DNA from: an uncultured Prevotella sp.
GTDB taxonomy: Bacteria > Bacteroidota > Bacteroidia > Bacteroidales > Bacteroidaceae
Direction of reading: 5' to 3'
NCBI GenBank assembly: GCA_900768785.1
Contig: CAAGEG010000050.1
Coordinates: forward strand, 16,057-80,056
DNA length: 64,000 nucleotides
Part shown: positions 34,161 through 44,421 of the stretch, piece after piece
Numbering within the stretch: the first letter of the stretch is position 1
How the letters are laid out: each line of letters starts with the position of its first letter
Notes under the pieces: model-generated
Told to the model about the DNA's origin: nothing
Seen by the model: the letters and a program-made list of their open reading frames with translations, nothing else
Databases searched by the model: none
Translations under genes and position numbers: made by a program

Positions 34161-36110
34161 TCAATATTCTCTGCTGTATCGCAACATCTGTTCGGTGTAG
34201 CTTTCGGTGTAGTCGGGCACAATGTCTGTTATCTTGCCTTTGTCGTCTCTGACGGCTTTAAGTCGGGGATTTACAAATCCTTTGTATGGCGGGATGTTCA
34301 GTTTGTCGTATCTTTCTTTTATTTCTTTGTGTAGTTCGGGGTCTGTTTTCACGGCGTATCTCTCTACGATATCTTTTGCTGCCTGATAGTCGCCTTCGCT
34401 CTTAATGCGCTGTATTTCAGCCAATAGCTGTGCAAACAGGTCTCTTAGTTTTTCATAGTCGTTGATTTTTACAAAGGTTTTGCCGTTTTTGCGAACAAGT
34501 TCTACTATGTTGTTTTTCTTGCCTTGTTCGTAACACCGGTGGGCTATGAGTGCTCTGTTTCTCATGTGGGCTTCTTCTATGTCTTGTCCTATGTTAATGC
34601 GAGCCATTTGTGTGAGCAGTCCGTTCATCATATAGGTATAATATGTTGCCTTGTATGCTTCTTTGTCGGGCAAGAGTCCCAAGTCGGTGAGTTTTTTGTC
34701 GGCGCAGTAGTATAGTCCGAATAGGTCGGCGCGAGCTTCTTCTATGGTACTTCCATATGCTTTCAGCGCGTCTTGACTTACGCCTTCAAGCAGTTGTCCG
34801 CTACCGTGTCCGAGACATTCGTGCAGGTCGGTGTGGATAATGTCACAGAGGTTGCCGTATTTATCTATGAGACAGCGTGTTTCGTTGTCTATGACAAATT
34901 CTTCAAGAAAGCCGTTGCCACGTGCAGCTTCGTTATATGCGTTGATGATATTGCTTATAGTAACGCTTTTCGAACCGTGTTGTGCTCTTATCCATTCGGC
35001 GTTTGGGAGGTTAATGCCAATGGCGGTAGCGGGATATTCGCCGCCACCGAGCATGGCGGCACATATAACGTTGGCTGTCACACCTTTAACTTGTTTTTTC
35101 TTAAATCTCGGGTCAACGGGTGAGTGGTCTTCAAACCATTGTGCGTTGTCGCTTATGAGGCGTGTGCGCATGGTGCCTTCTTTGTCTCTGTATTCCACGA
35201 GTCCTTCCCATGTGCCTTTAAGTCCTAAGGGGTCGTCGTAGGTTTCAATAAATCCGTTGATAAAGTCAATGTCGGCTTCGGTTTCTTTTACCCATTCTAT
35301 GCAGTAGGTGTTGAATGTTCTAAGGTCGCCTGTTGTGTAGTAGTCTATAAGGTGCTGTATTATAGAGCGTTGGTTGTTGTTTTCGGCTGTTTCTTTTGCT
35401 TTTTCAAGCCAATAGATAATGTGTGTTATCTGTTTGCTGTATTTGCCACCCACTCGCCATGTTTCTTCTTTTATTGTTCCGTTTTCTTTGACAACGGTTG
35501 TGTTAAGACCGAGTGAGAGGGGCTCTTTGTCGTTATTGTCTTTCAGTTGTGCATAGTAGGCTTCTACTTCTGCTTGTGTTACATCCACGAAGAAGTTGCA
35601 TGCCGAATTTTTAACTATATCTTCGTGGGCTTTTTTTGATACTTTTACGGGTGCTATGTTTGGGTCGTAAATTATTGGTATTAGCTCTTTTACGAGTTCT
35701 TCGTGTGTTTGTTTCTCGCTTAGTGGCAGCTGTTCTTTTTTTAGTGTGTTTACTGCGTCTGCGAAGAATTGTTTTGTGAAGTTTGGTATAAACTTTTCGC
35801 AACCGTAATGATGATATATACCGTTTGAGAACCACACTCTTTTGAGATAAGTTTCCAGTTGTCGGAAGTTGTCGGTGTTTCTGTCGCCTTCGTAGTGCAG
35901 ATAGATAGCTTCGAGGGTTTTGCGTATAAGTATGTTCCATTTGCCGAATTGGTCAAATGTGATGTCTCGTCCTGCGAGTGCAGCTTTGGCGAGATAGTAG
36001 GCGAGGGCCTTTTGCTTGAGGGTGAGTTGTTCGAAGTTCTCAAGTCTATATCTTAGTATTCTTATATCGGCGAAGTCTTCTACGATATATTGAAACTTAT
36101 CTTCTGTCAT
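34161..36110 (-). CDS. Dipeptidyl-peptidase III (M49)
   Basis: HECLGH zinc motif, EEARAD, GINLPN. Confidence 0.93.
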   Translation of the reverse strand: MTEDKFQYIVEDFADIRILRYRLENFEQLTLKQKALAYYLAKAALAGRDITFDQFGKWNILIRKTLEAIYLHYEGDRNTDNFRQLETYLKRVWFSNGIYHHYGCEKFIPNFTKQFFADAVNTLKKEQLPLSEKQTHEELVKELIPIIYDPNIAPVKVSKKAHEDIVKNSACNFFVDVTQAEVEAYYAQLKDNNDKEPLSLGLNTTVVKENGTIKEETWRVGGKYSKQITHIIYWLEKAKETAENNNQRSIIQHLIDYYTTGDLRTFNTYCIEWVKETEADIDFINGFIETYDDPLGLKGTWEGLVEYRDKEGTMRTRLISDNAQWFEDHSPVDPRFKKKQVKGVTANVICAAMLGGGEYPATAIGINLPNAEWIRAQHGSKSVTISNIINAYNEAARGNGFLEEFVIDNETRCLIDKYGNLCDIIHTDLHECLGHGSGQLLEGVSQDALKAYGSTIEEARADLFGLYYCADKKLTDLGLLPDKEAYKATYYTYMMNGLLTQMARINIGQDIEEAHMRNRALIAHRCYEQGKKNNIVELVRKNGKTFVKINDYEKLRDLFAQLLAEIQRIKSEGDYQAAKDIVERYAVKTDPELHKEIKERYDKLNIPPYKGFVNPRLKAVRDDKGKITDIVPDYTESYTEQMLRYSREY

Positions 36111-36123
36111 TTATTTGTGGTTT

Positions 36124-36573
36124 TTATTGTTCTGTTTCTTTTGCTTTTTTCTCTTTTGTCATACGAAGATAAAGCTGAAGATATTGGCGCGGTGTGATTT
36201 GAAAGTTTTTATAAAAGGCGGCATAAAAAGGTTGTCGGTGCTTAAACCCCACAAGTCCGGCTATGTCTTGAACGTTAAGGTTTAATTCTTTAAGTTTCTG
36301 TATATATTTGAGTGAAGCTTCAACTCGGCATTTATTGACAAAAGACGGAAAGTTCATGCCGTAGCCGAGTTTAATTGCCGCTGCCACATATCGTGTGTTG
36401 GTGTTGAGCTCTTTTGCGAGCTGTTCGATTCTATAATTCTCAACAAGATATCTTTTTTTCTTGACTATTGTTTCTTTTATTTTTGGTTTTAGTTCCTGAA
36501 TTCTCTTTTTCGGGATAGTGTTTGTGTACGCTGCCGGTTCTTTTTCGTTTGGGTGAATTTGATATTTTGCCAT
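36124..36573 (-). CDS. AraC-family HTH protein
   Basis: LAKELNTNTRYV..GMNF..IAGLVGF..FYAAF..TPRQY. Confidence 0.85.
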   Translation of the reverse strand: MAKYQIHPNEKEPAAYTNTIPKKRIQELKPKIKETIVKKKRYLVENYRIEQLAKELNTNTRYVAAAIKLGYGMNFPSFVNKCRVEASLKYIQKLKELNLNVQDIAGLVGFKHRQPFYAAFYKNFQITPRQYLQLYLRMTKEKKAKETEQ

Positions 36574-36812
36574 AATCCTGATTGTTTTATTAATGTATCG
36601 ATTTGCAAATTTACGAAAAACAAAGGAAACGCGAGTTGTTTAATAGCTATTTTTGATTTCTGTGGTTTTATTTTTCTTATATATAAATATGTACGAGTAC
36701 CTTATAATAAATACGATAGTGATATCGTTTGCCAAATGTTTACAAAACAGCGCTGTTTTTAACGTCTCGTGGAGTGGAAAATCTACATAAATATTACTCA
36801 TGTGTGAAAATA

Positions 36813-36895
36813 AGACAAAATGTCATACTGACTGACAAAAAGTCACTATAGTTTAATGTGTTGGTGCTTTTTAAAATTCAGGCATGGTGTTTGTT
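36813..36895 (+). promoter_or_regulatory. Two TGACA/TGTCA-type dyads plus sigma54-like -24/-12 element upstream of the 404-aa ORF
   Basis: AGACAaaaTGTCA 36813-25, TGACAaaaAGTCA 36833-45, AGGCATGGTGTTTGT 36880-94 (GG-N10-GT). Confidence 0.5.
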
Positions 36896-36925
36896 ATATT
36901 TTATGTATAATCAATTTTTTTTAAT

Positions 36926-38140
36926 ATGATCATTACCACTATAGTAGAAAAGAATGAGGAAGGCCTAAAAACAATATTACAGGCCGCAAGTATGTTCTGT
37001 GAAGAACGTTATTTATATGCAATTTTTCAAAATAATATGACGAAAGACGAAGTGGTTCGTCTTACAAGTTTTGTGCGTTCTAAAGAGTCTCAATTCAATT
37101 CAGAGATTCTTTCGCTTGCTAAATTCGCCCATAAGTGGCTTGATAGCTATGCAACAGATAATAACAGCTGTTTTGATGCTGCTGCAAATATGTTAAATAA
37201 AATCAGAGGTGCGATTAGTGGGGCTAAAAAAATTTATAAAAAGTTTTGCAAAAGAACAAGACGACAGCTTCCAAATGTAAACAACTGTTCTGTGCTTGCG
37301 CCATCTGAAAATGTAAACACACGTTCTGTGTTTAAGGCATCTGAATTAGCTAACCCTAATTATATTGATGATTTTTTCGGGATCGGCTCGTATGACGCTT
37401 GTGTTGCTGATTTATATAAAATACTTGAAATATTTTATCGAGAATTTTATTTTAGTTTAACGTTGTGCCGCATGATGTTAAGGTTAGAGGCACAGAAGAG
37501 AAATTCGCCTGAAATTATGGATATTTACAATAAAGCCATATGCGAAATGACTAAAGAGGCGAAAGAATTAATAGAGATTTATAAGGGGGCAGGTATCGAA
37601 GTCCCGCTTGATGACTTGAGTAAGGCAATTAGGGATAGTGATGACCGACTAATGGTTATTGCAGGCAATTATCATGCGTTGGATAAAACAACAATGAAAA
37701 TGCATGTTGCTCGGCAGCTTCAGGAGAAAAGTAAATCTACCGGACTTACCGTTGATGAACATATTCTGTGGCCCAACCAAACTGACAATGTGATTATTTA
37801 TCGGAATATGGCTCAACATTACGACGAAATAAGTCCTAAAAACAAAGATGGGAAACTTAATAGTTACGAAGTGGCTGCTTTCATGAGTTGGACAGGAATT
37901 AAAGAGAATGAAAATAAAACTACAACATTTGCGAAATGGCTTAGAGAAAATTATAGGGGGCAATATGCTCTGCCTGCTGCTAATACATTGAACAAAGCTA
38001 AAAACAAAGTAAATTTAAACAATGCAGACAATCATTTTTTGGATAAGGGTAGTTTTGATGTAAGATTGGATGAGCTTGCCACTAAGTATAATCACAGCCC
38101 AAAAAATATTCTTGACGACGCTTCAATTACTTTTAATTGA
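36926..38140 (+). CDS. Hypothetical protein (404 aa), no recognised domain
   Basis: Long open frame, ATG, followed by a strong terminator. Confidence 0.8.
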   Translation: MIITTIVEKNEEGLKTILQAASMFCEERYLYAIFQNNMTKDEVVRLTSFVRSKESQFNSEILSLAKFAHKWLDSYATDNNSCFDAAANMLNKIRGAISGAKKIYKKFCKRTRRQLPNVNNCSVLAPSENVNTRSVFKASELANPNYIDDFFGIGSYDACVADLYKILEIFYREFYFSLTLCRMMLRLEAQKRNSPEIMDIYNKAICEMTKEAKELIEIYKGAGIEVPLDDLSKAIRDSDDRLMVIAGNYHALDKTTMKMHVARQLQEKSKSTGLTVDEHILWPNQTDNVIIYRNMAQHYDEISPKNKDGKLNSYEVAAFMSWTGIKENENKTTTFAKWLRENYRGQYALPAANTLNKAKNKVNLNNADNHFLDKGSFDVRLDELATKYNHSPKNILDDASITFN

Positions 38141-38165
38141 TAATTTGTTTTTTTATTATAGCTAT

Positions 38166-38202
38166 AAGACGGAACATTGAAAGAGTGTTCCGTCTTTTTT
38201 TT
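38166..38202 (+). terminator. Intrinsic terminator
   Basis: AAGACGGAACAT / GTGTTCCGTCTT then T-run. Confidence 0.85.
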
Positions 38203-38229
38203 GATTATGTCATTTGTTTTCTTAGCTGA

Positions 38230-38284
38230 GTGACCAACTGAGTGACCAACTGCTTTTTTGCGTGACCAACTGTGTGACCAACAG
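38230..38284 (+). repeat. 4 direct repeats GTGACCAAC(T/A)G in two 12-bp-period pairs
   Basis: Copies at 38230, 38242, 38262, 38274. Confidence 0.9.
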
Positions 38285-38316
38285 CCTTTCAAAGTGCTCT
38301 TGAAGTGAACTAATTG

Positions 38317-38348
38317 TTTGTAATCCAATGTTTTAAGTTCTACCTTTG
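38317..38348 (+). promoter_or_regulatory. Bacteroidetes housekeeping promoter of the primase-helicase operon
   Basis: TTTG (38317-20) - N20 - TACCTTTG (38341-48), matches TTTG-N19-21-TAnnTTTG. Confidence 0.75.
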
Positions 38349-38466
38349 CCTTAGCTTAGACGGGGAAAATGGTCAAGCGTTGGACCGTAGGCCGGTGCTA
38401 CTTCCTTAGTCTTTGCGAGGCAGCTTCGGTGTAGCACCTGAAGAATATGCCGGAAAGAATATTTAT

Positions 38467-39039
38467 ATGTTAAATATTAGTAAAGCAAAATTCTCGATGT
38501 TTAATCCGGGAATTAACAAACCATCGGGGCAAAAGCCCTACATGCAGGGGACTTTGAGCGACGTCTTCGCTGTGATGAACACTCCCCAGATAGCGCAGCT
38601 TACGCGAGAATTACGGGCGCTAAAAGATGAGAAACAACAGAAGCTCTTTAAGGCTGAAAAACTTCCGTTTGTGACGTTTTCCGGGCAGTTCTCTTATCGT
38701 AACACAAAAGGACTGATTGCCCATTCGGGGTTGATGTGTTTTGATTTTGACCATCTTTCTAATGACGCTGATGTTCAGCGCGTTAGAAAGGTGCTGCTCG
38801 GTGACCCTACGTTTGCGACAGAACTGATGTTCACTTCTCCGCGTGGGAATGGCGTTAAGTGGGTAACACACATAGACTTAGAGCGCGGCGACCACGCGAA
38901 GTGGTATAGGGCGATTCGACAATACCTATTATATAAATATGGTATAGAAGCCGACCCGGCCCCTTCGAGTGTGTGTTCGGCGTGTTTCCTGTGCTGGGAT
39001 GCCGATTTAGTTATAAATAATCAAATATGCGTATTTTAA
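38467..39039 (+). CDS. BT4734/BF3469 (VirE_N) family protein, AEP primase-like (start placed at MLNISK)
   Basis: KLPFVTFSGQF..R, HSGLMCFDFDHL (DxD), FTSPRGNGVK, ACFLCWD. Confidence 0.85.
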   Translation: MLNISKAKFSMFNPGINKPSGQKPYMQGTLSDVFAVMNTPQIAQLTRELRALKDEKQQKLFKAEKLPFVTFSGQFSYRNTKGLIAHSGLMCFDFDHLSNDADVQRVRKVLLGDPTFATELMFTSPRGNGVKWVTHIDLERGDHAKWYRAIRQYLLYKYGIEADPAPSSVCSACFLCWDADLVINNQICVF

Positions 39040-39051
39040 AACAAAAACAAC

Positions 39052-41310
39052 ATGACAGATAATATATTAAATTTTGACCTTGATTTGTGGTCAAATGCTG
39101 AAAATGAGAGTGCTAAGGGTGCAAACCAAAGTGCTAACGGTGTAGTTCCATGCGCCAACAGAGGTTCTGCGGCGAGCGCTAATGTTGCTGCCCCAATCGC
39201 TAATGGCGTAGTTCCAAGCGCCAACAGAGGTGCTGCGGTGAGTGTAAATAGTGCAAACCCAAGTGTAAATGGCGGTTCTGCGGCGAGTGTAAATGGTGCA
39301 ACCCCAAGTGCTAACGGTGTAGTTCCAAGCGCTAACGGCGGTAATTCTACCGAAAACAGCGAAAGCGACGACATGCCTGTTTGGGACACTTATGACGAGG
39401 TAAAAACCTTCGTTGATGAGCTTTGCGATGCGCAAATAAACATCTGCGAAACCTACGACCAATGGTTTAAAATTGGCTTTGCCCTTGCGGGCTGTCTCGG
39501 CGAAGAGGGTAGGGAGTTGTTCCACCGCCTTTCGGCGCAGTCTTCGAAGTACGATTTCGCGGAAAATGAGAAAAAATACGACAACTGCTTGCGCACATAC
39601 AATGGCAGCATTAACATCCAAACGCTATATTGGTATGCCCGCGAGGCTGGTTTTGACCTCGTTGACTATGCCGTGCGCCATAACCTCGAAGTGGACTATA
39701 GCACCATTGAGGAAGAGTGTCTGCAGGGAGAAAGCGATGTGGAAGTTGGCACAGTTGGCACAGTTGGCACAGTTGGCACGACACGTATTTTAAATAGTAA
39801 TTATTATAACTCATTGATAATCAATGATAGTAATATTTTAGAAGAAAAAACAAGGGGCGTGCCAACTGTGCCAACTGTGCCAACTGTGCCAACTTTTTCG
39901 GACCAAATTGCCGAAGATGAGTGGTGTGATTACTTGCGCCCTATTGTTCAAAAAATGAAAGATGCCGAGTCGCGAGACAAAATGCTGCTCTCTGCCCTTG
40001 TGCTCAACTCCGCCCTTATGCCCAACCTCTACGGGCGATACGGAAATAAAGATATTTATCCTAATTTATATCTTATAATCAGCGGCCTGTCGGGTGGCGG
40101 AAAGGGCGAAATACAGCTGGCGAAGCACATCGTCAAGCCATACAGCGACGAAGCCAAGAAAAACTTCGAGAAGGCATTAGCGGATTATCAACAGAAATTC
40201 GCCCTTTGGAAAGAGGCGGCAAAGCAGAAAAAAGACCCTACTAAGATTGGCGATGCACCCATAGAGCCACAGGAAAAATATATCTTTATACCAGCCGACT
40301 CTACTGAGGCGGCAGCTCTGCGCGAACTAAAAATTAACGAGGGCAAAGGTATTATTTTCGACAGCGAGGGCTCGGTGGTGCGCAAAGCGTTAAAGTCAGA
40401 TTACAAGGATTATAGCTCTATTATGCTCAAGGCATTTCATCACGAAAATATCTCGGTGGCGCGTATTAAGGACGAAATCCGCTACGACATTCCCAACCCT
40501 CGCCTCTCTATTCTTCTCACCTGCACACCGGGTGAACTTCCCAAGTTGTTCCCCTCGTTCGAAGACGGTCTGGGCACTCGTTTCCTCTTTTACCAGCTTG
40601 CGCCACACGTGGAATGGAAAGACCAACTTAACGACGACGACCAGCTCGATTATCTCTTTTATGAACTCGGTACGCAGACGTTGGATTTTTATCATCAGCT
40701 CGCCGACCTCAAAAACCGACGAATTAAATTTCTACTCACCCCTGAGCAGCAACAGAGGTTCAACAACTTCTTCCAAGAGGTTCAGCTTCAAGAGTTCGAG
40801 ACTCATGGCGACGGCATACTCTCGTTTGTTAAACGTCTCGGTCTGAGCGCCTTTCGGTTGGCTATGGTTCTGTCGCTCCTCCGACGACACAGCGACCGCA
40901 AAGGCATAATGCACCTCTTCACGGAGAGCGAGCAGACCCTCATTTGCAACGATTTAGACTTCCGGATTATGCTCACTATCATAGAAACGCTCGTGGCGCA
41001 CACAACTTCAATGTTCGCCGAAATAGCAGCTCAAAATGAGCTTCCGGGCTCTAACCGCGCAGCGCAGAGCAACATGGAGCTGGTTCTCTTCAACGCCCTT
41101 CCGCCCCAGTTTACTAACATGGATTTAAAGAACGTGGCAGCACAAATTAACCTATCTGAACGAGCAGCGAGGAAATATCTTACTAAATTCCTCAACGAAT
41201 ATAGAACTATTGAGCGCATAAAGTACGGGCATTATAAGAAAGTTGTTCAAAACAATGCGTCCGGCAATCCAAAAAACAACGCTTTTAGCAACCCAAAACA
41301 ACGTGTTTAA
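39052..41310 (+). CDS. PriCT-2 + DUF3987 (YfjI-like P-loop helicase) protein with repeat insertions
   Basis: PriCT-2 YDQWFKIGFALA..GRELFHRLS; Walker A GLSGGGKG; Walker B IIFDSEG; PRLSILLTCTP; DGLGTRF; C-terminal wHTH-like segment. Confidence 0.85.
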   Translation: MTDNILNFDLDLWSNAENESAKGANQSANGVVPCANRGSAASANVAAPIANGVVPSANRGAAVSVNSANPSVNGGSAASVNGATPSANGVVPSANGGNSTENSESDDMPVWDTYDEVKTFVDELCDAQINICETYDQWFKIGFALAGCLGEEGRELFHRLSAQSSKYDFAENEKKYDNCLRTYNGSINIQTLYWYAREAGFDLVDYAVRHNLEVDYSTIEEECLQGESDVEVGTVGTVGTVGTTRILNSNYYNSLIINDSNILEEKTRGVPTVPTVPTVPTFSDQIAEDEWCDYLRPIVQKMKDAESRDKMLLSALVLNSALMPNLYGRYGNKDIYPNLYLIISGLSGGGKGEIQLAKHIVKPYSDEAKKNFEKALADYQQKFALWKEAAKQKKDPTKIGDAPIEPQEKYIFIPADSTEAAALRELKINEGKGIIFDSEGSVVRKALKSDYKDYSSIMLKAFHHENISVARIKDEIRYDIPNPRLSILLTCTPGELPKLFPSFEDGLGTRFLFYQLAPHVEWKDQLNDDDQLDYLFYELGTQTLDFYHQLADLKNRRIKFLLTPEQQQRFNNFFQEVQLQEFETHGDGILSFVKRLGLSAFRLAMVLSLLRRHSDRKGIMHLFTESEQTLICNDLDFRIMLTIIETLVAHTTSMFAEIAAQNELPGSNRAAQSNMELVLFNALPPQFTNMDLKNVAAQINLSERAARKYLTKFLNEYRTIERIKYGHYKKVVQNNASGNPKNNAFSNPKQRV
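39109..39350 (+). repeat. About 11 degenerate in-frame 21/24-bp tandem units (SANGVVP / SANRGAAV)
   Basis: 7-8 aa units with a 22-aa (66-bp) higher-order period at the N-terminus of the helicase ORF. Confidence 0.9.
39743..39895. repeat. Perfect 38-bp inverted repeat (4 x AGTTGGCAC per arm) around a 77-bp AT-rich core with centred palindrome
   Basis: Arms 39743-39780 and 39858-39895 are exact reverse complements; TCATTGAT-A-ATCAATGA at 39811-27; both are centred on 39819. Confidence 0.97.
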
Positions 41311-41330
41311 CCCTCAAAACCAACGTAATT

Positions 41331-41564
41331 ATGTTCAAAAACAACGAAGATTTCACAATCAAAACATACACGAAAAAAGAGCTCGCCTGTCTCTATTTTC
41401 CCGACGCCAACGACCCGCACACAGCCGTTAACCACCTCATGGCGTGGGTGCACCGCTGTCGCGGGTTGCCCGAAAAGTTAGCCGAACTCGGCTACAACAA
41501 AAACAGCCGCCTGCTCACGCCCAGACAAGTTCGGGAGATTGTCTTTTATCTCGGCGAGCCGTAG
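41331..41564 (+). CDS. DUF4248 family small DNA-binding-like protein
   Basis: YTKKELACLYFP..AVNHLMAW..LGY..LLTPRQVREIVFYLGEP. Confidence 0.88.
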   Translation: MFKNNEDFTIKTYTKKELACLYFPDANDPHTAVNHLMAWVHRCRGLPEKLAELGYNKNSRLLTPRQVREIVFYLGEP

Positions 41565-41640
41565 CATCGCCAACCCTCAAAGTGCGCTCCGATTTTCCCG
41601 GAGTGCACACTTCTTATCCCCCAAAACCAAATAATAATTA

Positions 41641-41729
41641 GTTCGCACGGATTTGTAATCCGTGCGGAAGGCTTGTGCGGATTTCAAATCCGCAGTTATA
41701 TTACACGGGGATTACAAATCCCCGTGAAC
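41641..41729. repeat. Cluster of three REP-like palindromes (GGATT-n3-AATCC core)
   Basis: CGCACGGATTtgtAATCCGTGCG 41644-66; TGCGGATTTcAAATCCGCA 41676-94; CACGGGGATTacaAATCCCCGTG 41704-26. Confidence 0.85.
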
Positions 41730-41891
41730 ATGAATAATTTTTTAAGAAATTGTACGCCAACGTATTATAACTCCTAATCGCTTTATTTATATATATTATC
41801 TTTGTCATGTAATCAAGGCGATTATACGGCTCAGCCGAGCGGTGGCCAACGCTTCACTTAGTCGGAATCATTAACTTAAAAAAATAAAAAA

Positions 41892-42323
41892 ATGATAAAG
41901 TACGTTTTAAAGCAAAACCAGAACAACACAACTTCAGCCTACAAAAAGTATTATGCTCACCCGGTTATCGAAAGTACAATGAACCTGAACGACCTTGCTC
42001 GCCACATGTCAGAACACGACACAGGCTTCTCTGAAGCTATGATTGTGGGAGTATTGAAGGCTATGGTAAGATGTATCAAAGAGATGATCCTCGACGGCAA
42101 AAACGTGAAGATAGACGACCTCGCAATATTCTCTTGCGGCATTCGCAACGCCGAAGGAGCAGCATCTGAAGACGACTTCACCGTCGCCAAAAACATCAAG
42201 GGCGTTAAGCTCCGTGCCCGCGCCACAGGTTCGTTGAGCAACACCAACCTCAACCTTGCTGCAACGCTGAAGAAAGCCACAGCGCTGGACACCCCCGCCG
42301 CAGCAGCAGCACCAAAAGCATAA
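41892..42323 (+). CDS. Bacteroidetes HU/IHF-like DNA-binding protein
   Basis: KYYAHP..MNLNDLARHM..ILDGKNVKIDDLAIFS; promoter TATCTTTG at 41797-804. Confidence 0.88.
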   Translation: MIKYVLKQNQNNTTSAYKKYYAHPVIESTMNLNDLARHMSEHDTGFSEAMIVGVLKAMVRCIKEMILDGKNVKIDDLAIFSCGIRNAEGAASEDDFTVAKNIKGVKLRARATGSLSNTNLNLAATLKKATALDTPAAAAAPKA

Positions 42324-42339
42324 CTTTGGTGGGGAACAT

Positions 42340-42364
42340 AGACCTGCGTCCACGCAGGTCTTTT
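42340..42364 (+). terminator. Intrinsic terminator after the HU gene
   Basis: AGACCTGCGT-cc-ACGCAGGTCT-TTT. Confidence 0.75.
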
Positions 42365-42535
42365 GTTAAGAACGTGCGGCACGTTAAGAACGTTAAGAAC
42401 ACACGGACCGTTAAACCGTTAAGAACGTTAGGAACGTTAATAACGCAAGGAACGCAAGGAATGTAAGCAACGCAAGCCACACACGGACCGTTAAACCGTT
42501 AATAACGTTAGGCACGTGCGGAACGCAAGCCCGTT
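42365..42535. repeat. Degenerate 9-bp repeat tract (GTTAAGAAC/GCAAGGAAC) with a duplicated block
   Basis: ACACACGGACCGTTAAACCGTTAA at 42399 and 42479 (80 bp apart). Confidence 0.85.
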
Positions 42536-42575
42536 AGTAAAAGCCCCGCTTGATAACTTTTTTTAAAACAAAAAC

Positions 42576-42785
42576 ATGAGTGTCCGTGAAACAAGAAGGG
42601 GCAATACCGTTCCGCCCCACACCGTTGGTCTTCACGTCAGAGCCCAAGAGCCGACAGATCACATAGATTGTCCCTTTCTTGATTTTATAAGTTGCATCAT
42701 CCAGGACGCAACCGATAATAATAATGAGGAGGAAGCAGAAGTCACCCGCCGCCCGAAGGACGCAACGTGCAAAGGGGGTAAATAA
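42576..42785 (+). CDS. Candidate small protein (69 aa)
   Basis: ATG preceded by TTTTAAAACAAAAAC, identical to the context upstream of the DUF3987 gene. Confidence 0.45.
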   Translation: MSVRETRRGNTVPPHTVGLHVRAQEPTDHIDCPFLDFISCIIQDATDNNNEEEAEVTRRPKDATCKGGK

Positions 42786-42820
42786 CAAACCAACAGAAAA
42801 CGGCGAGCCACCTCTCGGAA

Positions 42821-43050
42821 CTGCATCTCTCGCGTGCGTGGAAACTTCCGCCGGAGGAGTAGCAACATTAGGACTTGAGATGAGCTGCATCTCTCGCTCG
42901 CGTGGAAACTTCCGCCGGAGGAGTAGCAACATCAGGACTTGATATGAGCTGCATCTCTCGCGCTCGCGTGGAAACCAAAACGACTTAATACAAAGACAAA
43001 AGCAAGTGATTACGGCTGCATCTATTGTGCGTGCGTGTGGGAACTTTCTG
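42821..43050. repeat. 64-bp tandem repeat (2 full, 1 partial, 1 degenerate copy)
   Basis: CTGCATCTCTCGC..GCGTGGAAAC starts at 42821, 42885, 42949; degenerate at 43016. Confidence 0.9.
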
Positions 43051-43074
43051 CAGAAAAGCAACCGCAAGAGACAG

Positions 43075-44421
43075 CTACAAGAGCTCTATTTTTAGAATGT
43101 TTTTTGTCTCTTCGGTTATTCTGAACGAGTTGTCAGGGCGAAGATTTACAAGCCATAATATTTTGTTATTCCTTTCTGTCACAACAAGTTGTCGTTGTTT
43201 GTCAAATAGCGACAGCTTGTTGTCAGTTAGGAAATCGCTCACCAATTTACTACCCCTCATCCCCAGAGGACAAAAGCGGTCGCCCGGTGCCACCTTTCTT
43301 ATTAAGAGAGGAAAAGCCGCCCGGTCAGCGTCAGCCATCAAGCAACATTTGCGCTTGTCAATCTTTACATCATCAGTCATCGGGAAGACGCTCACCCGCA
43401 GCTTGGTATTCTCATCATACAGATACGTTCCCTCTTCCGGTATCCTCATTACCTTGTCATTATAAGCCCCGCGCCGCTCGATTATTATATATTTACGGTC
43501 TATAAGCAGTTGATGGTCAGCTGAGTAGAACACCTTTCCCGATTGTGACGCCATAGTCTTTGTTATGCTCTCCGCATCAGCAGAAGTGAAGCCGTAACCG
43601 CTTACGATTTTCCAAACCACATCCTCGCAATAATCAAATTCCAAGAGTTTGTTTATGTCTATCGTTACCCCTCCGCTTTCAGTTGTGACACACACTTCCG
43701 AAGCAGCTTTGTTTACAGTGTCGTTGTATATCTTCGCAACACTTTCCAGTCGTCTTGCCGTGCGCTCTATGCACTCCTGAGCAGCAGGATTTATATCTTT
43801 GATAATGGGTATTAAATTCAGTCGCACCTTGTTTCTTCGCACATCGTCTTTCAGATTGCTGCTGTCGGTTACATAGCTCTGTTTCAGTAGGTTAAGGAAG
43901 TCGAGTATGTCAGCTTTCGATACACAGAGCAAAGGCCGTATTATATTGTTGTTTTTTGCCGCTATTCCCGTCAGTCCATTTATGCCCGTTCCTCTGAAAA
44001 GGTTCAAAAGCACCGTTTCCACGCTATCGTCCCTATGGTGCGCCACGCAGACAGCCGTAGCCCCTATGTCGTGAGCCAGTTTTTGGAAATAGTCGTAGCG
44101 CAACTCCCGCGCTGCCATTTCGATACTTACCTTATGCAGCTCGGCATATTCGCGCGTGTCAAAGTGCACCCGATGAATAGTCACGCCAAGTTTCTCACAC
44201 AGTCGAACAGCAAACAATTCATCGTTAAGAGCTTCATTGCCACGCAGTTGGAAGTTGCAATGCACAGCCTCAACCTCATAGCCCAACCGCACAAGCGCAA
44301 TCAATAACGCCACGCTGTCAGCCCCTCCCGACAGTCCCACAAGGCACTTGTCAGTAGGTTTCAGCAAGTCACGCCCTTTTATATATTGCGCCACACGCTT
44401 TAGAAAATCGTCAGCCATCAT
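43075..44421 (-). CDS. tilS: tRNA(Ile)-lysidine synthetase
   Basis: SGGADS PP-loop, EMAARELRY, AHHRDDSVET, IRPLL, RNKVR. Confidence 0.95.
   Translation of the reverse strand: MMADDFLKRVAQYIKGRDLLKPTDKCLVGLSGGADSVALLIALVRLGYEVEAVHCNFQLRGNEALNDELFAVRLCEKLGVTIHRVHFDTREYAELHKVSIEMAARELRYDYFQKLAHDIGATAVCVAHHRDDSVETVLLNLFRGTGINGLTGIAAKNNNIIRPLLCVSKADILDFLNLLKQSYVTDSSNLKDDVRRNKVRLNLIPIIKDINPAAQECIERTARRLESVAKIYNDTVNKAASEVCVTTESGGVTIDINKLLEFDYCEDVVWKIVSGYGFTSADAESITKTMASQSGKVFYSADHQLLIDRKYIIIERRGAYNDKVMRIPEEGTYLYDENTKLRVSVFPMTDDVKIDKRKCCLMADADRAAFPLLIRKVAPGDRFCPLGMRGSKLVSDFLTDNKLSLFDKQRQLVVTERNNKILWLVNLRPDNSFRITEETKNILKIELL

Follow-up and report, generated by a model that had tools for sequence, protein, structure and literature searches.

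A candidate replication origin within the helicase gene of a primase-helicase module from an uncultured Prevotella

Introduction

What does a primase-helicase gene cluster do among the housekeeping genes of a Prevotella chromosome, and on which DNA does it act? The question arises from a 64,000-nt stretch of an uncultured Prevotella sp. (GenBank assembly GCA_900768785.1, contig CAAGEG010000050.1, positions 16,057 to 80,056 of the forward strand), hereafter the window, in whose numbering positions are given. It corresponds to G000:C50:16057-80056, where C50 is an 81-kb contig of the source genome, G000 (2.72 Mb in 171 contigs, 83.8% complete). Five genes on one strand make up the module, identified from open reading frames (ORFs) and Pfam: orf404, a BT4734-like primase-polymerase (PrimPol), a helicase with PriCT-2 and DUF3987 domains, a small DUF4248 protein, and a DNA-bending protein of the HU-HIG family. 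The module is bordered to the left by an AraC regulator and a peptidase M49 gene (dpp3) and to the right by tilS. This gene content and placement had been described in an earlier, sequence-only reading of the locus, and Pfam confirmed them; that reading had gone on to propose that a split primase and helicase, together with their cognate cis site, had become fixed in the chromosome and act on the host DNA nearby.

Related gene pairs have been characterized. AgaPP, a BT4734-like protein, is an active primase-polymerase from integrase- and pAgo-bearing elements of Bacteroidota, and its partner AgaPH, a PriCT-DUF3987 protein, forms oligomers, has ATP-dependent helicase activity in the 5'-3' direction and binds AgaPP (Nucleic Acids Res 2025, PMC11724360). 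In the portions of that paper available to us, its authors propose that the pair replicates its own element; the word 'iteron' does not occur there, and no occurrence of 'origin' concerns a replication origin. DUF3987 has been described as a predicted helicase and such AEPs as residents of integrated mobile elements (PMC5862659, available in part). A well-defined origin is known from the Staphylococcus aureus pathogenicity islands (SaPIs), where 6-12 penta- or hexanucleotide iterons, in opposite orientation on the two sides of an AT-rich centre, are recognised by the winged helix at the C-terminus of a helicase that loads itself and acts together with a primase (PMC9371898, available in part).

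Here, we describe a symmetric iteron element inside the helicase gene of the window module. Because its anatomy matches that of the SaPI origin, we favour, with modest confidence, a reading of the module as a pri-rep-ori replicon of mobile-element type, in which the origin would be coded in the helicase linker and an operator would lie close to the promoter.

Results

Two opposed iteron arrays flank an AT-rich spacer in the helicase gene

The element occupies positions 39743-39895, within the helicase gene (39052-41310, + strand, 752 aa), and consists of two 49-nt arms (39743-39791 and 39847-39895) that are 92% complementary. The left arm contains four exact copies of the 9-nt unit AGTTGGCAC (39744-39779, + strand), translated in frame as (VGT)4, and the right arm four exact copies of the 9-nt unit GTGCCAACT (39859-39894, + strand), translated as (VPT)4. 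Between the hexamer cores of the two arrays lies a 79-nt spacer (39780-39858) with the central palindrome TCATTGATAATCAATGA; its AT content is 76%, compared with 53% for the whole helicase gene, and it is a candidate unwinding element. As protein, the element reads (VGT)4 TRILNSNYYNSLIINDSNILEEKTRG (VPT)4 and accounts for helicase codons 231-281, which in the structural model fall in a predicted disordered linker between PriCT-2 and the ATPase. An 18-mer of two units matched the window six times (0.00 expected, 100 shuffles), and the intragenic symmetric repeat noted in the sequence-only reading was thereby upheld. Folded as single-stranded DNA, the whole element forms a hairpin of -59.5 kcal/mol (z -13.4).

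Related repeats had also been claimed at the operon promoter, and these too were found: four direct repeats of GTGACCAAC(T/A), which is the iteron with one extra A, occupy 54 nt upstream of the PrimPol gene (38230-38283, + strand). They represent 4 of 14 genome-wide matches to the GTGACCAAC 9-mer and its sole cluster in the genome, and would make a candidate operator for autoregulation. A box reading TAccTTTG follows at 38341-38348, before the PrimPol gene, and resembles TAnnTTTG, which we take to be the Bacteroidetes -7 promoter consensus; the HU-HIG gene has its own TAtcTTTG box at 41797-41804. The structured leaders reported earlier did not hold up, as they folded no better than shuffled sequences (z -0.58 and -1.24). 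No Rfam family was matched at E<0.1, and three sub-threshold matches (E 0.17-0.43) were rejected.

Some divergent homologues also have inverted arrays at this linker position

An alignment-based scan of species-representative genomes yielded 80 loci among the matches listed, whereas a scan of genome contigs with a single-protein query returned no relatives; 8 loci from a search of 40 relatives brought the set to 88. The scan confirmed at least 564 relatives. Both domains lay on one strand at 76 of the 88 loci, with linkers of 46-325 nt, and for each of these we compared clusters of core words in the linker with those in same-length stretches elsewhere in the same loci. Inverted arrays of 3+3 units were present in 5/76 linkers for 6-mers (0/6607 controls) and in 11/76 for 5-mers (2/6586 controls). 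Relaxing the arrays to 3+2 units gave 14/76 linkers for 6-mers (6/6586 controls) and 17/76 for 5-mers (40/6586 controls; ≤0.6%).

Read directly from the linkers, the arrays comprise 3-4 short inverted units, and the core differs by lineage: TGCGCA in locus L050; GTGCCA/TGGCAC in L054 and L058; AGCGCCA in L063; CCCTCA/TGAGGG in L059, L051, L016 and L121; TCCCCA/TGGGGA in L086 and L061; TTCCGCA/TGCGGAA in L070 and L052; and GTCGCA in L053. At 8 of the 14 loci measured, the window included, the arrays flank a spacer of 52-141 nt with 57-81% AT (in this measurement the automatic split of arrays was unreliable for L059 and L051), and a CATTGA(T/A)(A/T)ATCAA-like centre is common to several linker spacers. 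The linker position is thus conserved while the sequence is lineage-specific, which suggests that the arrays form a conserved site acting in cis, with the build of the SaPI origin, and that this site is most likely the origin of the module. The earlier proposal of a split primase and helicase with a cognate cis site is thus supported both by these arrays in divergent homologues and by the homologue biochemistry in the available portions of PMC11724360.

The module encodes a PrimPol and a partner helicase with a predicted winged helix

The PrimPol gene (38467-39039, + strand) encodes 190 aa from an ATG at 38467, the mechanically called start being a TTG at 38413. The protein is an AgaPP-like, BT4734-like AEP: it matched PF08800 (BT4734-like_N) at E 4e-21, with 76 bits against a cut-off of 22.4, and the PADLOC PrimPol profile at E 4.9e-23. 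Its translation contains FDFD, GVK and WD in the order of published motifs I-III (DxD, a motif with Lys in place of His, and hD), to which they may correspond; the motifs of AgaPP are given as DFD/GLK/VD (PMC11724360, available in part).

The AgaPH-like helicase matched PF08707 (PriCT_2, E 2.5e-15) and PF13148 (DUF3987, E 1.9e-50). AlphaFold, run on an alignment of 22 sequences (predicted local distance difference test, pLDDT, 71), predicts a disordered segment at residues 1-111, PriCT-2 at 112-212, a disordered linker at 213-277, an ATPase at about 280-660 and then a winged helix at 671-732, which is encoded at 41062-41247 (+ strand) and shows an H-E-H-H-E-E pattern with pLDDT 76-91. The Foldseek PDB matches listed were all MCM subunits (E 6.5e-5 to 1.1e-3), with whole-chain TM scores of only 0.23-0.28. 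The Walker A/B residues K351 (the Walker A lysine), G352 and E439 are invariant in the 22 sequences. By analogy with the homologues, for which both properties have been shown, the window protein may act as a helicase and bind PrimPol. Its low-complexity, SANG-rich N-terminus is encoded by 21- and 66-nt tandem repeats (39087-39342, + strand), has a pLDDT of ~30 and differs in length from that of the closest protein found, P0001 (30 gap columns). These repeats were considered as iterons and dropped, there being just two exact copies of GTGCTAAC in that stretch.

The PrimPol and helicase ORFs lie in one frame, separated by a 12-nt gap, so that a single TAA and four codons (39037-39051) stand between them, and at L063 the two are fused into a protein of 867 aa; one stop codon therefore toggles between split and fused forms. 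Most helicase homologues (n = 91) are 585-650 aa with PriCT_2 and DUF3987 only, and some are fused (~760 aa). A BT4734_N gene lies directly upstream of the PriCT-DUF3987 gene in 81/88 homologous loci, and split ORFs are the usual form of the family. A PADLOC match to RTasVirE-PriCT2 was set aside as domain-level only, the reverse transcriptase being absent. Elsewhere in the genome, paralogous genes on contigs C77, C81 and C133 have the domain order DUF3987, BT4734_N, PriCT-2, and the DUF3987/BT4734 paralogue on C133 has an integrase 6 kb away.

Two comparisons lend indirect support to the C-terminal winged helix as a candidate reader of the iterons. P0001 (723 aa) is 99% identical to the window helicase in PriCT-2 and 97% in the ATPase, and only 51% identical over the C-terminal 100 aa; at the protein level, the element is found at the corresponding position, with every unit changed by one codon in both arms (GTN/VPN vs VGT/VPT). 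Among 17 proteins, the winged helices of pairs of the same iteron class were slightly closer than ATPase identity predicts (residual +0.038 vs -0.005), a weak association that 3 of 2000 label permutations reached.

Fragments centred on the element are dispersed through the genome

The 18-mer, allowing ≤2 mismatches, matched the genome 56 times, and its reversed control did not match at all. When positions 36001-44000 were compared with the genome by blastn, the segment 39698-39980 was multi-copy; otherwise, only a REP-like repeat (repetitive extragenic palindromic; 41635-41730) and the DUF4248/HU paralogues recurred. This ~280-nt segment, common to the dispersed copies, contains the core and ~130 nt of gene-derived flanks. 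The element was found at 20 loci, of which 7 are internal to contigs (C50, C21, C75, C99, C104, C125 and C164) and 13 lie at contig ends, so that in this incomplete assembly the 20 loci represent ~13-14 elements. The six internal copies besides C50 are all intergenic (hereafter orphans), and only one of the 20 loci is inside a long ORF. With about 19 further copies elsewhere in the genome, the element is not a private site, and the earlier proposal that the module acts on neighbouring host DNA is not supported. The genes next to four orphans encode a LuxR/hemerythrin regulator, LptF/G, TetR, an MFS transporter, an acetyl-xylan esterase, enolase and SusD. The orphans C21a and C164a are built of the 8-nt unit AGTTGGCA.

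Across the 10 pairs among five internal main-type copies, the 151-nt core was 97.1% identical (range 96-99), the left 46 nt of flank 60.0% (41-89) and the right 85 nt 74.7% (66-86), and farther left identity fell to 32%, as in random sequence. The spacer is almost unchanged in all 7 internal copies. Because the core is near-identical and the flanks have decayed, the cores would seem to be recognised still, whether by the helicase, by gene conversion from a master copy or by a copying mechanism of their own, which implies some constraint on them in the form of binding, gene conversion or selfish propagation. The right flank of the orphans encodes TFSDQIAEDEW..., whose first four residues, TFSD, stand at the beginning of DUF3987 in homologues of other genomes; since the orphan flanks are thus homologous to helicase coding sequence, the gene is the source and not the target. 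Some orphans have in common ~50 nt of extra left flank that is missing from the helicase gene, so orphans were also copied from orphans. The ends of the internal copies are ragged and differ, with no consistent terminal inverted repeat or target duplication.

The repeat is lineage-specific, the 18-mer having a single match in each of 4 among 200 other genomes of the genus. We also looked for extra copies of the respective linker element in eight other genomes and found them in two, G217 and G222. The first, Prevotella sp. AGR2160 (the genome of L063), has two orphans near contig ends, L128 (G217:C11) and L129 (G217:C12), and a 70%-identical full-length match; each of the two orphans carries two adjacent palindromes that differ in their units, TTCCGCCA/TGGCGGAA and TTAGCGCCA/TGGCGCTA. 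The second has, at G222:C87 (L130), a truncated second copy of the L052 helicase in which the left array and spacer are retained and the right arm has the unit TGCGCAAAC, a swap that looks like recombination within the spacer. High-copy orphans were present in G000 only among the nine genomes examined. Scans of metagenomes with spacer patterns gave 0 and 4 matches, and the 4 were discarded as chance matches to AT-rich DNA lacking iterons.

The module belongs to an integrase-less lineage

We examined the surroundings of the module in 13 loci, chosen for long flanks and hence not a random sample, by searching 124 ORFs against Pfam. Seven loci (L055, L064, L066, L072, L078, L080 and L086) are of an integrase type, with the layout (dnaK), HTH_17, tyrosine integrase, unknown gene, HTH_17, PrimPol, helicase and cargo. 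The cargo is Piwi/pAgo, Dcm with HATPase, restriction-modification, or AAA_21 with RloB. Piwi-domain (pAgo) genes lie directly 3' of the helicase at L055:10150-12393 and L064:10024-12117, which fits the published pAgo association. The remaining six loci (L051, L053, L058, L059, L063 and L089) resemble the window and have no integrase within ~5 kb. An orf404 homologue is found upstream of the module in L051, L053 and L059, and HU-HIG downstream of the helicase in L058, L059, L063 and L089 by Pfam and in L053 by tblastn; in L051 the sole tblastn match to HU is ~6 kb upstream on the opposite strand. The window module belongs to this distinct integrase-less lineage (orf404, PrimPol, helicase, HU-HIG). 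The possibility that it is a recent remnant of an integrase-bearing island, raised in the sequence-only reading as a way for its proposal to fail, was rejected because the integrase-less lineage is seen in 6/13 loci.

The window module itself lacks the integrase-island layout of an upstream integrase with an excisionase-like helix-turn-helix (HTH) protein and downstream cargo: Pfam recognised no HTH_17 and no cargo genes in it. The tyrosine recombinase family PF00589, the one family searched genome-wide, had 10 matches in the genome and none on C50; transposases, relaxases and capsid genes were not recognised by Pfam in the ORFs of 28-49 kb. We found no convincing direct repeat flanking the module and no tRNA in the window. 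The earlier statement that no integrase was recognised stands, as far as PF00589 goes, for the contig, and for transposase, relaxase and capsid genes it holds for the ORFs of 28-49 kb.

The claim that the module is fixed in the chromosome was not supported, on several counts. A helicase homologue was present in only 5 of 24 same-genus genomes, the best helicase homologue in 40 relatives was 38% identical, and 7/13 loci are integrase islands. The gene tilS adjoins the methyltransferase in 12 of 20 same-genus regions fetched, and none of these 12 relatives has module genes within ~7.7 kb of tilS. L059, from a Xylanibacter ruminicola metagenome-assembled genome (MAG), has the module adjoining tilS and a PUA-methyltransferase as in the window; tilS is 47% identical between the two and the module proteins 25-37%. 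Genus core genes have ~66-72% nucleotide identity, too divergent for synteny at the DNA level, and dpp3 and tilS lie 6-270 kb apart or on separate contigs in relatives. Viral contigs contained distant relatives only (13 loci, 26-33% identity). Judged from these sequences, the module is an accessory, integrase-less branch of a family that drives integrase-bearing defence islands elsewhere.

Other features of the locus

The outer flanks are made up of housekeeping genes: hisS, purA, fur and genes for a DNA-alkylation repair protein, a PUA-methyltransferase, a 3'-5' exonuclease and ftsK. GC content falls to 31-38% over 36.0-38.5 kb, against ~45% in the surroundings. The first gene of the module, orf404 (36926-38140, + strand), encodes an all-helical protein, and where the module lacks an integrase, homologues of this protein are conserved ahead of the PrimPol gene. 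It has 11 homologues at 32-97% identity and no family in Pfam, NCBIfam, PHROGs or PADLOC. Its AlphaFold2 model (pLDDT 73) is all alpha, Foldseek returned no PDB match at E≤0.001, and VIA-align found generic helical bundles only (Z≤8.5). An Atlas lead to DUF6043, annotated in 29% of one cluster, found no support when 16 members of the family were searched against Pfam.

Terminator-like hairpins follow orf404 (38166-38196, + strand; a 13-pair stem and a T run, separating orf404 from the PrimPol-helicase operon), the DUF4248 gene (41582-41608) and the HU-HIG gene (42340-42361), and their positions suggest three transcription units. DUF4248 (41331-41564, + strand) matched PF14053 at E 3e-28 and has paralogues on C35, C78 and C118; HU-HIG (41892-42323, + strand) matched PF18291 at E 2.2e-18. 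Further DUF4248 and HU-HIG pairs occur on C35 (7031-7850), C118 and C78, with no detectable DUF3987 gene close by, and the HU proteins of C35 and the window are 92% identical.

Between the DUF4248 and HU genes lies the multi-copy REP-like double hairpin repeat GTTCGCACGGATTTGTAATCCGTGCGG... (41635-41730), which has >25 matches on at least 15 contigs of the genome and is unrelated to the iteron element. The HU terminator is followed by a degenerate 9-nt tandem array, GAACGTTAA / AACGCAAGG (42366-42529), of ~13-18 units in two mirrored halves. L048 and L062 also have 9-, 18- or 22-nt arrays after DUF4248 or HU, and such arrays may be binding sites for small DNA-binding proteins. A last small ORF, orf69 (42576-42785, + strand), had no family match in Pfam. 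An identical 16-nt sequence, TTTTAAAACAAAAACA, precedes the starts of the helicase (39034-39049) and orf69 (42561-42576), and an 88% copy lies just within the start of the HU gene (41905-41920); it may be a common translation-initiation context. A 64-nt tandem repeat (42818-42976; 2.4-3 copies, 92-93% identical) falls within a 177-aa minus-strand ORF (42534-43067), which has no family and no homologue in the 88 loci and is probably not a gene.

Discussion

Taken as a pri-rep-ori replicon, the module would work as follows. Protomers of the helicase, taken to be MCM-like and self-loading, would read the iterons, probably via the winged helix, and two opposed helicase rings would load on either side of the AT-rich spacer and melt it, with HU-HIG bending the DNA to assist. 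PriCT-2 would recruit PrimPol, which would prime synthesis, and helicase bound to the four iteron-like repeats ahead of the PrimPol gene would throttle its own operon. The ~280-nt gene piece centred on the candidate origin has spread to some dozen or more places between genes.

The PrimPol-helicase pair has been proposed before as the replication machinery of an element. As in the AgaPP/AgaPH elements, a BT4734-like AEP is followed by a protein with PriCT, DUF3987 and a small C-terminal domain, Walker A/B motifs are present, and the 7 of 13 homologous loci with an integrase show the order integrase, HTH, PrimPol, helicase and defence cargo, two of them with Piwi. The window module differs from those elements in having no integrase, pAgo or defence cargo and in having orf404, DUF4248 and HU-HIG; the intragenic iteron element and its orphans lie outside the published description as available to us. 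With the SaPI system the module has in common a primase, a helicase-initiator that is hexameric, self-loading and C-terminally equipped with a winged helix, as predicted here, and opposed groups of short iterons on the two sides of an AT-rich centre (4+4 exact 9-nt units and a 79-nt, 76% AT spacer in the window); in the available SaPI text, iteron specificity likewise varies between elements. The helicase family is different, DUF927 being the one named for an S. aureus island (PMC5862659, available in part). The SaPI origin directly follows rep; the window element, by contrast, is inside the ORF and translated. SaPIs have an integrase and phage-interference genes, with no mention of dispersed orphan origins in the SaPI account at hand.

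An origin within the coding sequence of its own initiator would have a precedent in phage lambda, whose ori sits in gene O, in the segment that codes for a linker between domains, and comprises four iterons next to an AT-rich region. The window differs in having inverted 9-nt units on both sides and in that the initiator would be the helicase itself.

Several observations weigh against the pri-rep-ori reading. Roughly 19 extra copies of a live origin would put a chromosome at risk, a point in favour of an inert or selfish element. When three or more exact tandem units plus an inverted array were required, none of the 88 other loci qualified, and distant loci with 79-109-nt linkers, mostly from Flavobacteriales and Chitinophagaceae, had no array flagged; as even the loosest criterion captured only 17/76 linkers and none at distant loci, the feature is specific to a subclade. 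At several loci of integrase type (L086, L061, L070 and L072) the arrays abut with no AT-rich spacer, and no promoter-proximal iteron cluster was seen in 12 homologous loci. The case for the winged helix is affected as well: the change in P0001, known to us as protein, may be confined to the 3 nt between hexamer cores and leave the core itself intact, the association across the 17 proteins is weak, the sequences are kin, and L054 and L058 have GTGCCA iterons in common with ATPases 65% and winged helices only 31% identical. Finally, AgaPH, in the published text available, unwinds 5'-3', unlike MCM.

The copies themselves suggest another account, in which a selfish palindrome, akin to a miniature inverted-repeat transposable element (MITE), a REP or a Rickettsia palindromic element, settled in frame in a disordered linker that tolerates it and does nothing for the module, whose true origin, if any, would be elsewhere. 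Dispersed palindromic repeats are well known from these families, some of them read in frame within proteins, and here a palindrome of ~150-300 nt is present in a dozen or more copies, with one in frame within a protein and many short and non-coding. That 13 of the 20 loci break the assembly at contig ends, that the internal copies besides C50 are intergenic (the four scanned ones among ordinary host genes), that G217 and G222 have extra copies, that the repeat is lineage-specific and that orphans were copied from orphans all speak for this account. We nevertheless consider it unlikely. The orphan flanks, TFSD included, derive from helicase coding sequence, which makes the gene the source; a single locus of the 20 falls within a gene, with no recurrent in-frame insertion into unrelated genes; differing arrays occupy the same linker in divergent homologues, 6/8 tested genomes having no extra copy; and the iterons surround an AT-rich spacer, with ragged ends at which no consistent terminal inverted repeats or target duplications were found. 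A hairpin or cruciform that pauses or terminates expression between the PriCT-2 and ATPase parts, or an operator that blocks transcription of its own gene, would account for the very stable fold, for a position that in the model is exactly between two domains and for the related repeats in the promoter region. A structural hairpin needs no tandem units, though, and the 3-4 units per arm, lineage-specific cores and AT-rich spacer are the signature of multimeric protein binding; orphans outside genes also retain the same core, and such a role seems to us quite improbable. Still less probable is a site for transfer or recombination, whether an oriT or an integration/excision site for a recombinase encoded elsewhere, with the orphans as secondary sites. 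Relatives do reside in integrative mobilisable islands (integrase at 7/13 loci), MobC and a relaxase are listed beside VirE/DUF3987 genes of B. thetaiotaomicron (PMC10434189, available in part), the module stands beside tilS both here and in the Xylanibacter ruminicola MAG, and copies are dispersed. Yet no relaxase or recombinase was found in or near the module (Pfam over 28-49 kb; PF00589 genome-wide), the site is interior to the element and not terminal, vegetative origins are typically built of iteron arrays about an AT-rich centre, and the orphan junctions are unlike att crossovers.

The sequence-only reading had drawn an analogy with the run-off origin of Bartonella, which is chromosomal and phage-derived. 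On this account the helicase-primase would be a resident system acting on the host, firing at the site in the gene and at the dispersed copies and over-replicating the chromosome. The likeness lies in a chromosomal origin of phage or mobile-element descent with no obvious excision function, and the setting among hisS, purA, fur, dpp3, tilS and ftsK, the lack of a tyrosine integrase on the contig and the 97% identity of the orphan cores would all agree with it. Against this, the module is accessory and patchy and not conserved in its lineage, no linked packaging or gene transfer agent-like genes were seen in the ORFs scanned, and high-copy orphans occur in one genome of nine; the analogy thus found no support, and we regard a host-acting system as distinctly unlikely. 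A narrower idea concerns the orphans alone. PrimPol-helicase might load at a dozen or more chromosomal cores as live sites, causing local over-replication or run-off, or the cores might be decoys that titrate incoming initiators. Ongoing recognition would predict cores at 97% and flanks at 60-75% identity, as observed; even so, we consider live orphans rather unlikely. If orphans did act as decoys, they would amount to exclusion of related elements at the level of replication, built from fossil origins.

The spread of a piece of a replication gene, centred on its candidate origin, into a chromosomal repeat family with conserved cores is unusual, and our literature search found no description of such a case. 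Pairs of PrimPol and PriCT-DUF3987 are widespread in Bacteroidota, and the islands that encode them carry pAgo, restriction-modification and other defence cargo. If the favoured pri-rep-ori reading is true, a translated iteron origin in the helicase linker would supply the origin left unnamed in the available portions of PMC11724360, and lineage-specific iterons would explain specificity between related elements. The module would then represent a native replicon of ~3.5-4 kb for Prevotella and Bacteroides, usable as a vector backbone.

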